A stretch of DNA of 64,000 nt from Parcubacteria group bacterium. Its GTDB lineage: Bacteria > Patescibacteriota > Minisyncoccia > UBA6257 > UBA11618. Each line of letters opens with the position of its first letter. Position 1 is the first letter of the stretch. Positions 38,109 through 38,840 of this stretch are shown here, one piece after another. Below the pieces are notes generated by a model, which had not been told where the DNA came from, ran no database searches, and saw only the letters and a program-made list of their open reading frames with translations. The stretch is from the NCBI GenBank assembly GCA_943357895.1, contig CALRGO010000001.1, positions 140,042 through 204,041 of the forward strand, read 5' to 3'. The position numbers and the translations under genes are program-made.

Positions 38109-38143
38109 CATTATCGTTATATGCCGACCGTCATATGACGATA
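38109..38143. repeat. Degenerate palindromic element, copy 1, immediately 3' of the PaaX-like gene.
   Basis: cattatcgttatatgccgaccgtcatatgacgata is about 34/40 identical to the element at 38797-38840. Confidence 0.6.
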
Positions 38144-38148
38144 CTAAG

Positions 38149-38811
38149 TTAGTCGGGGATAGTTCCTTTTTTTAATACGGAAAATATATGAACATATTTC
38201 CCTAAGTTCATTTTCCGGCATTCTTCTAAAAAATCTTCTGGTAGGAGGTTGTTTCCTATCCATACGCTTTCGTGGAGTATCTTGTAGTCGAGGTTATGTA
38301 GGGCGCTTCGTAGCCACACCCGCTTCGGTGATTCCTTTTCGGGGATATCGAAGCTTACGATAATAGGATTAGCACTTTTTATTTTTTTATACCGTGTTGG
38401 TGTGCCGGGGGCGGGGCGGAGTTTCGTGTCGCGTTCAAATCGTTTTTTGAGTACATGGATTTTTTCAGTTCCTTTTTGGGTTATGGAGAGCGTTGCTCTC
38501 ATGCCTTTCTGATTCTTCGTTATTAGTCCATGGGAGTGTAATCGGTATATAAGATCCGTGAATCGTTTTTTATCTGCTATAGCTTGGTTTTCCGTATTTA
38601 AAGTAACTCTCCGTTGCCATGATCGCCGCTTGAACGCTTTATATCCTTCCTTGCTAAGTCGGTGTCCACTGCCTTCGAGGGTGCGGGACATAAGAAAATC
38701 GAATAGGTCATTCATGTCGAGATACCCTCGATCGAGCGCTTTTAATGCCTGTATGCTTAATTCGTCTAATATACGCCCCATATCCTTATATATGTACCAC
38801 ATTATCGTCAT
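38149..38811 (-). CDS. Short PaaX-family transcriptional regulator (N-terminal winged helix plus a PaaX middle-domain-like segment).
   Basis: ..LIYRLHSHGLITKNQKGMRATLSITQKGTEKI.. resembles the PaaX wHTH. ..IIVSFDIPE..KRVWLRSALHNLDYKILHESVWIG.. resembles the PaaX middle domain. The first four codons lie inside the palindrome, so the true start may be M at 38802 or 38781. Confidence 0.55.
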   Translation of the reverse strand: MTIMWYIYKDMGRILDELSIQALKALDRGYLDMNDLFDFLMSRTLEGSGHRLSKEGYKAFKRRSWQRRVTLNTENQAIADKKRFTDLIYRLHSHGLITKNQKGMRATLSITQKGTEKIHVLKKRFERDTKLRPAPGTPTRYKKIKSANPIIVSFDIPEKESPKRVWLRSALHNLDYKILHESVWIGNNLLPEDFLEECRKMNLGKYVHIFSVLKKGTIPD

Positions 38812-38840
38812 ATGCCGGTCGGCATATGACGATAATGTGG
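38797..38840. repeat. Perfect 21 bp inverted repeat with a 2 nt spacer, overlapping the 5' end of the PaaX-like gene.
   Basis: ccacattatcgtcatatgccg, then gt, then cggcatatgacgataatgtgg. Confidence 0.7.

Follow-up and report, generated by a model that had tools for sequence, protein, structure and literature searches.

A predicted winged-helix/Cas2-like regulator gene bracketed by two copies of a 40-bp palindrome in Parcubacteria

The window, i.e., the whole stretch of DNA analysed, is 64,000 nt long and originates from a Parcubacteria group bacterium (assembly GCA_943357895.1, contig CALRGO010000001.1, positions 140,042 to 204,041 of the forward strand). It carries a gene for a small putative DNA-binding protein, designated REG, with a palindrome on its 5' side and a second copy of this palindrome just past its stop codon. 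Genes for glutaredoxin (grx) and thioredoxin reductase (trxB) lie on the 3' side of REG, and a two-gene operon coding for a small protein (smallsec) and a Lamin-Tail-Domain (LTD) protein lies on the 5' side. A palindrome on each side of the gene was found throughout a large family of REG homologues from the Candidate Phyla Radiation (CPR)/Patescibacteria. This layout of palindrome, gene, and palindrome thus represents a conserved module; it is neither an operator unique to this locus nor a mobile miniature inverted-repeat transposable element (MITE). No description of the REG family or of its two-palindrome layout was found in the open-access papers searched.

The perfect inverted repeat of the 5' palindrome, described in an earlier note made from the sequence of this DNA, was confirmed; on the plus strand it reads CCACATTATCGTCATATGCCG gt CGGCATATGACGATAATGTGG. 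It reaches 19/20 in an ungapped 20-pair score and as single-stranded DNA folds at -22.8 kcal/mol (z = -8.8 vs shuffles). The degenerate second copy is also present as described, with 15/20 arm pairs self-complementary and 32-34/40 identity to the 5' palindrome. It ends 2-4 nt from the REG stop codon (38149-38151), in the 100-bp convergent spacer that separates the stops of trxB (38046) and REG (38149). The 13-mer tcatatgacgata, previously given as the core of both copies, is exact in the 3' copy only; both 5' arms carry gcatatgacgata, and the core common to the two palindromes is the shorter catatgacgata. The 17-nt arm occurs four times in 64 kb at ≤3 mismatches, which are exactly the four half-sites, with 0.22 occurrences expected and 0/100 shuffles reaching four. 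No further palindrome of this type was found in the window. An overlap of the 5' palindrome with the first codons of the gene, as once proposed, is true of the mechanical open reading frame (ORF) only. The start of REG was set at the ATG at 38781 because most homologues are 210 aa long and begin at the matching position. The 5' palindrome is then 16-59 nt upstream of the likely REG start, a position that is likely promoter territory, and about 125 nt upstream of the divergent smallsec. The features of the locus are summarized in Table 1.

Table 1. Features annotated around the REG gene (coordinates of the window)
Feature	Position	Strand	Details
Glutaredoxin gene grx	36875-37114	+	Syntenic neighbour on the 3' side of REG
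Thioredoxin reductase gene trxB	37114-38046	+	Convergent with REG; conserved syntenic neighbour
3' palindrome (D)	38108-38147		Degenerate copy; centre CGACCG at 38127/38128; in the convergent trxB/REG spacer
Regulator gene REG	38149-38781	-	210 aa; start at ATG 38781 supported by homologues
Mechanical ORF of the regulator	38149-38811	-	220 aa; start at ATG 38811
C-terminal Cas2-like ferredoxin-fold domain of REG	38167-38382	-	Residues 134-205; motif FDIPEKE..KR.WLRS...SVW.G.
N-terminal winged-helix region of REG	38407-38781	-	Residues ~1-125; recognition helix and wing at ~residues 66-105
5' palindrome (U)	38797-38840		Perfect 21+2+21 inverted repeat; centre CGGTCG; arms 38797-38817 and 38820-38840
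Promoter-like site TTGAGA-18 nt-TAGTAT	38862-38891	+	Facing smallsec, 22 nt past the 5' palindrome edge; consensus match only
smallsec	38965-39420	+	151 aa; divergent from REG; partner operon gene 1
LTD protein gene	39399-42215	+	938 aa; partner operon gene 2

Genome loci with REG homologues, 77 in number and designated below by L and a number, were fetched, and ungapped 20+20 palindromes were scored on them with a threshold of ≥14/20. Within 250 nt of the gene, palindromes that reach this threshold and have a CG[AG][TC]CG-type centre show a 142-fold enrichment, and this type of centre is present in 88% of gene-proximal palindromes versus 9% of distal ones. The centre is almost always CGATCG, CGGCCG, or CGACCG; TGATCA was found in two related loci, L027 and L036. 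Unique full-length CPR/Patescibacteria genes with both flanks available numbered 65, and 51 of these have a palindrome on both sides, ten on one side, and four on neither. Median distances are 45 nt from the centre of the 5' palindrome to the start codon, 41 nt from the stop codon to the centre of the 3' palindrome, and 690 bp between the two centres. The arms are wholly different between loci, the two copies within one locus match, and genomes with two paralogues carry two palindrome types. Arm mismatches are absent from positions 2-3, rare at 12-17, and frequent at 4-11 and 18-20; arm position 4 is never T. This mismatch profile fits a symmetric dimer that would read the centre and one outer block on each side. 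The sites of one locus often differ at several arm positions, with each site still a perfect palindrome, and asymmetric sites within loci are mostly direct repeats. Homology between the copies of one locus ends exactly at the edge of the 40-mer, with no flank homology or duplication beyond it.

Solo palindrome copies were counted as well, and 16 are present across all fetched loci (about 1 Mb in total). On contig CAYJOT010000001.1 (L049 at 9529; L058 at 4811/5443), a solo copy is separated by about 16 kb from the paralogue to which its type belongs. It is located between convergent genes, and close to it is another paralogue, which has a palindrome type of its own. Locus L048 has five copies of one asymmetric 40-mer, all in the same orientation (2436-2663, 3408-3448, and 4114-4154). 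Three of them follow one another at intervals of about 90-98 bp, ahead of two small ORFs (126 and 90 aa) that lie before REG, and the spacers between these copies show no homology. Compared to the 90%-identical L128, L153 (645-776 and 4225-4345) has a tandem extra palindrome copy together with a 14-nt flank. A distant copy in L153, at 665, carries about 30 nt of the REG 3' end, is 91 bp from a palindrome of a different type, and looks like the remnant of a lost, duplicated second cassette. A few loci with REG in the syntenic position depart from the layout in having no detectable flanking palindromes. In L010 (4333-5573), an extra ORF of 189 aa is inserted between trxB and REG. In L067 (3189-4412), REG abuts trxB and the sole palindrome is 597 nt downstream.

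The order grx, trxB, REG, smallsec, and LTD is kept in a relative with 85% protein identity (five assemblies), in a strain variant of the window, and also in loci with 52% protein identity and lower. Both palindromes are kept in place in L078, L002, and L085, where the two sites change together and the surrounding spacers diverge; this persistence and co-evolution of both sites spans from 85% down to 52% protein identity. All four half-sites of the 85% relative have ATTCTCG where the window has ATTATCG, and its two sites match at 40/40 positions when read in direct orientation, a pattern that points to gene conversion as its probable origin. The asymmetric 2-bp centre is inverted in the window (CGACCG at 38127 and CGGTCG at 38818) and direct in this relative (L001, CGACCG at both 209 and 899), which would imply that the conversion event also flipped the palindrome centre. 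In the strain variant L083 (1050-1085), REG is identical over 217 residues, and one arm of the 5' palindrome is GTTATATG where the window has GTCATATG. The same arm variant is found in the 3' copy of the window. The perfect symmetry of the 5' palindrome in the window is therefore not fixed in the population.

A MITE or another multi-copy element was considered for this stretch and rejected, as no further copies were found in the 64 kb or in 17.9 kb of the 85% relative, which holds two palindrome copies. The hallmarks of a MITE or an insertion sequence were not found: there is no target-site duplication, there is no flank homology beyond the 40-mer, and the element occurs at this site only in the 64 kb. 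All six assemblies of close relatives have it at the same place. Because both palindromes persist in place in relatives, they are neither a recent insertion nor a MITE. A phage or plasmid origin was likewise rejected, with no relatives found in viral contigs. Of the mobile mini-cassette or MITE suggested earlier, a recently mobile or multi-copy element is thus not supported. The idea of a mini-cassette gains from the fact that the gene is found in either orientation at the same site across lineages and that the site in one relative holds a lone palindrome without the gene. Occurrence only here and conservation in place, which had been proposed as the signs of a simple operator, were found at the species level, but such a reading misses the two-site architecture of the whole family.

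REG consists of an N-terminal winged-helix region and a C-terminal Cas2-like domain. The latter matches PF20803 (PaaX_M, the Cas2-like middle domain of PaaX) with E = 7e-10 and 39 bits against a cut-off of 24, over residues 151-215 of the 220-aa ORF, and 30/30 REG relatives match this model, too. The PaaX N-terminal model PF07848 gave no Pfam match with the window protein and matched 1/30 relatives (E = 0.0028). In hhalign, residues 75-109, which represent the recognition helix and the wing, were aligned with residues 58-92 of Escherichia coli PaaX (E = 0.002, probability 14%), and weak similarities of the N-terminal region to MarR, PadR, and PaaX-N were recorded. The protein ends about five residues after the Cas2-like domain and has 210 aa compared to 316 aa in E. 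coli PaaX; the C-terminal (effector-binding) domain of PaaX is therefore absent. No match was obtained in an NCBIfam search, nothing significant in PDB sequence searches, and there are no known recombinase or transposase domains (serine or tyrosine recombinase, HUH-Y1 TnpA-like) among the domain matches. The assignment to the PaaX family made in the earlier note is thus supported for the middle domain only. REG is in effect a "mini-PaaX", composed of a winged helix and a Cas2-like domain without the ligand-binding C-terminal domain.

The AlphaFold2 model of REG (mean predicted local distance difference test score 81) has helices and a beta-wing, followed by a beta-alpha-beta-beta-alpha-beta domain. 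In Foldseek, E. coli PaaX (8a39) was ranked first, followed by many Cas2 chains (2ivy, 3exc, 5zyf, and 4es2), with weaker matches to the Lrp/AsnC-type structures 2ia0, 2gqq, and 4pcq. The CRISPR Cas2 model PF09827 is matched by 10/30 REG relatives. PADLOC Cas2 models align from model position 2 and put the invariant D145 of REG at model position 8, which we take to be the place of the Cas2 catalytic Asp. No cas1 or other annotated cas gene was identified within 7-10 kb in the window or in the 85% relative, where CRISPR arrays were not searched for.

The family comprises at least 715 clusters at 50% identity (E ≤ 1e-30), all with proteins of about 185-220 aa, and as far as records say it is confined to CPR/Patescibacteria. 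A search with the family profile finds REG as the one member in the window, and no family member was found in viral contigs. Across 149 diverse members with a mean identity of 30%, residues D145, R154, S172, and G206 never vary, and at least 90% of the members share Y131, E148, K153, R158, W156, and W174. Of these, Tyr131 (about 38389-38391 in the window) is in the low-confidence linker before the Cas2-like domain, and conservation of this degree is unusual for a linker residue. Mean identity across the family is 49% in the C-terminal domain and 27% in the N-terminal region.

The gene smallsec matched no Pfam family. A hydrophobic N-terminal stretch, seen in its translation, is probably a membrane anchor or a signal peptide. 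The end of smallsec and the LTD ORF overlap by 22 nt in the window. No paa genes are nearby; the neighbours are grx, trxB, smallsec, the LTD protein gene, and polysaccharide-synthesis genes. In a metagenome scan with the smallsec alignment, 52 loci were assessable. REG is directly upstream of smallsec in 22 of them and after LTD in two (L138 and L151), the latter with the arrangement palindrome, smallsec, LTD, palindrome, REG, palindrome and with three copies that are 38-40/40 identical. Three other loci have a palindrome upstream of smallsec and no REG in the locus, and 25 have neither REG nor palindrome. Where REG is adjacent, a palindrome precedes smallsec-LTD (15 loci scored). Locus L084, one of the three without REG, has trxB, one palindrome, and smallsec in this order, and its smallsec protein is 64% identical to that of the window. 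The sites appear to behave like a small regulon. Because the operon keeps the palindrome even where REG is elsewhere or missing, smallsec-LTD is most likely the target of REG. The earlier note had seen no adjacent target operon and an unrelated secreted protein, and that view is not tenable: the neighbours form a conserved partner operon bearing the same palindrome. Orthologues of LTD carry a staphylococcal-nuclease domain (L151, 6372-11285) or a ComEA-type helix-hairpin-helix domain (L010, 6367-10035), which suggests that the LTD protein may have an extracellular DNA-binding, nuclease, or DNA-handling function.

Between the same neighbours, REG faces smallsec in 19 unique loci and faces away in ten; the window carries the latter, divergent orientation. 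On a neighbour-joining tree, at least seven orientation changes were counted among 29 tips. Opposite orientations were found at 83% nt identity (L088 vs L156), where the inverted segment ends at the palindromes. The exact breakpoint between these two loci could not be located: the junction palindrome is re-symmetrised, and crossovers at the centre and in the arm are indistinguishable. Orientation differs only at ≤83% nt identity, all seven pairs at ≥90% identity agree, and the six assemblies of the window's species group share one orientation. Inversion is therefore an infrequent event, unlike a fast switch, and it fits passive recombination between inverted repeats. The 3' copy as a decaying vestige left after inversion, suggested by weaker 3' copies in divergent loci, was ruled out, as convergent contexts have 3' sites just as often and with the same perfection, and the 3' site is conserved down to 52% identity.

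The best explanation, held at roughly even odds (probability about 0.5), is that REG is a dimeric protein with winged helix-turn-helix and Cas2-like domains, whose cognate 40-bp sites bracket its own gene and would serve for autoregulation, control of the partner operon, and anchoring at the 3' side. REG would then be a regulator with palindromic operators, which is a known kind, with unusual features. One REG dimer would cover one 40-bp palindrome, with the conserved Cas2-like dimer sitting on the invariant centre (A)CG-RY-CG(T) and the variable winged helices reading the outer blocks, which are variable as well and lie 12-17 bp from the centre. This predicted geometry is supported by a parallel between the two molecules, as the conserved Cas2-like domain corresponds to the conserved centre and the variable N-terminal region to the variable arms. 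Covariation of winged-helix divergence with arm divergence was also tried and was uninformative, with correlations of just 0.05-0.19. The perfect 5' site would cover the -35/spacer region of REG's own promoter and cause autorepression; of the autoregulatory operators proposed in the earlier note, the 5' copy is a plausible one. Outward-facing -10 boxes inside the arms were rejected, as the position-specific composition is unlike TATAAT. The 5' site would also be part of the divergent control region of smallsec-LTD and so control the partner operon. The 3' site would be a second selected anchor, either a loop partner or a roadblock insulating the unit. As inverted repeats of one another, the two sites would make the cassette prone to rare flips and deletions by recombination.

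Several results weigh against this explanation. The sole promoter-like match near smallsec is not above chance (one site vs 2.5 expected in shuffles). The 3' site reaches ≥14/20 in 89% of 28 convergent loci versus 79% of 33 co-directional ones, and 5/16 solo sites are between convergent genes; a location away from promoters is therefore common. REG has kept an Asp where the catalytic Asp of Cas2 is found, a residue missing in E. coli PaaX. The copies of one locus share 90-100% identity along the whole 40 bp, asymmetric positions included, and such sharp-edged identical copies look more like copying or conversion of a discrete unit than like ordinary operator evolution. Moreover, the two sites of a locus differ symmetrically, with compensation, in 69 cases where 16 are expected, which dimer binding alone does not predict. 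Gene conversion and quasipalindrome template switching are known mutational processes able to yield identical copies and compensated differences, but both observations would equally fit an active copying or recombination mechanism.

Such a mechanism is at the core of a rival explanation, which is possible but unlikely. According to it, the palindromes are substrates, the Cas2-derived domain cuts, nicks, or recombines DNA site-specifically at the invariant, CGATCG-type centre, and the whole is a self-contained element that can be inverted, excised, or copied. The layout itself is in favour of it, with cognate palindromes on both sides of the gene, a separate palindrome type for each of the several paralogues in a genome, a centre that is invariant while the arms vary, and near-identical copies with sharp 40-bp edges. 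The conserved polar residues D145, E148, K153, R154, R158, and S172 and the linker Tyr131 count in its favour as well, and the asymmetric sites, mostly direct repeats, are as expected after crossover at the centre. The recurrent in-place inversions (at least seven changes among 29 tips) with ends at the palindromes, the single palindrome without a gene at the same site in L084, the solo copies in convergent spacers, and the remnant of a duplicated cassette plus the tandem extra copy in L153 are in agreement with it, too. On the other hand, the copy number is very low (two in 64 kb and two in 17.9 kb of the 85% relative), synteny is deeply conserved, viral contigs contain no relatives, no known recombinase or transposase domain was matched in REG, and there is no orientation polymorphism among the seven pairs at ≥90% identity or the six species-group assemblies. 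The Cas2 systems known so far have weak nuclease activity or can do without it, and a role in dimerisation has been described for the middle domain of PaaX. Recombination of the RecA type between 40-bp repeats can invert or delete a segment, and quasipalindrome template switching can yield perfect symmetry.

Alternatively, the palindromes could be bound by REG but act mainly as boundary elements, i.e., roadblocks or insulators against read-through at unit ends in a compact genome. This is a variant of the regulator explanation with shifted emphasis, and taken separately it is rather improbable. It would account for sites at both ends of REG whatever the neighbour orientation, for sites at the ends of neighbouring units in L138/L151, L050, and L036, and for the many sites in convergent spacers; a flipped module would stay functionally symmetric, which would explain why inversions are tolerated. 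Nevertheless, sites are few per locus, most gene ends have none, and 25/52 smallsec loci lack both the gene and the site. RNA hairpins, whether they act as bidirectional intrinsic terminators, stabilise mRNA, or are processed by a Cas2-like RNase, are very improbable and were rejected, even though 20-bp stems would fold strongly, one copy is in the 3' untranslated region, and RNase activity is known from some Cas2 and VapD proteins. The 327 mismatches show no wobble bias (71 G.T, 83 A.C, and 173 others), no T-run follows the stems, the flanks are not A-left/T-right, and a terminator scan makes no call. In addition, the stem positions beside the supposed loop are the least symmetric, the 5' copy overlaps a promoter region and not a transcript, and Rfam yields sub-threshold microRNA-hairpin noise only.

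Several known systems come close to REG. PaaX, the repressor of the phenylacetate catabolon, binds palindromic operators, and its structure (PDB 8a39), the top Foldseek match, combines an N-terminal winged helix with a Cas2-like domain in the middle, with the recognition helix and wing aligning with REG. REG, however, has no PaaX C-terminal domain, is below the PF07848 model, and has no paa genes nearby; E. coli PaaX is without the motif FDIPEKE..KR.WLRS and the beta1 Asp, and the predicted operator of REG has 40 bp and is on both sides of the gene. Cas2, the dimer of which lies along duplex DNA in Cas1-Cas2, shares the ferredoxin fold with the REG domain and has a similar motif x-D-[IV], a basic helix 1, and Q-x-S-V-[FW], but REG is fused to a winged helix and its family is, according to the records, confined to the CPR. 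Lrp/AsnC proteins also combine a winged helix with a C-terminal beta-alpha-beta-beta-alpha-beta oligomerisation domain; there is no sequence relationship to REG, and Lrp sites are short and degenerate in contrast to the 40-bp near-perfect palindromes bracketing the gene. In lambda CI (OL/OR) and in the loops of LacI, GalR, and DeoR, a regulator gene is between homologous operators several hundred bp apart and cooperation by looping is possible. Each of their operators controls a promoter, whereas the 3' site of REG is often between convergent gene ends.

Among mobile and invertible systems, RAYT genes with their REP/REPIN sequences are similar to REG as single-copy genes flanked by cognate palindromes, with one type per paralogue, a conserved short core, and variable stems, and the solo copies of the REG type are in intergenic and convergent spacers, too. 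REG differs from RAYT in having no HUH/Y1 transposase domain, in two to five copies per locus in the loci fetched instead of tens to hundreds, and in deeply conserved synteny. The Hin/hix system resembles the locus as a segment of about 0.7 kb with a protein gene and two bounding palindromic sites of dimer size, found in both orientations between fixed neighbours. Unlike Hin, REG is without a serine-recombinase domain, and its orientation differs between lineages (≤83% nt identity) and not within populations.

Very few regulators of CPR/Patescibacteria have been characterised, and a large family of at least 715 clusters is now defined there. With one 40-bp palindrome type per paralogue and an invariant core, it offers a testable protein/DNA code. 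A Cas2-like domain with an Asp in the catalytic position would be linked here to the recognition of palindromic DNA outside CRISPR, and this link bears on the origin of Cas2 and of the PaaX middle domain. If it is true that the palindromes are cut or recombined, they would represent a new class of genetic element in CPR bacteria, similar to RAYT/REP or Hin/hix and based on the Cas2 fold. The LTD operon as the likely target points to possible extracellular DNA handling, which may be relevant to nucleotide acquisition by auxotrophic CPR cells.

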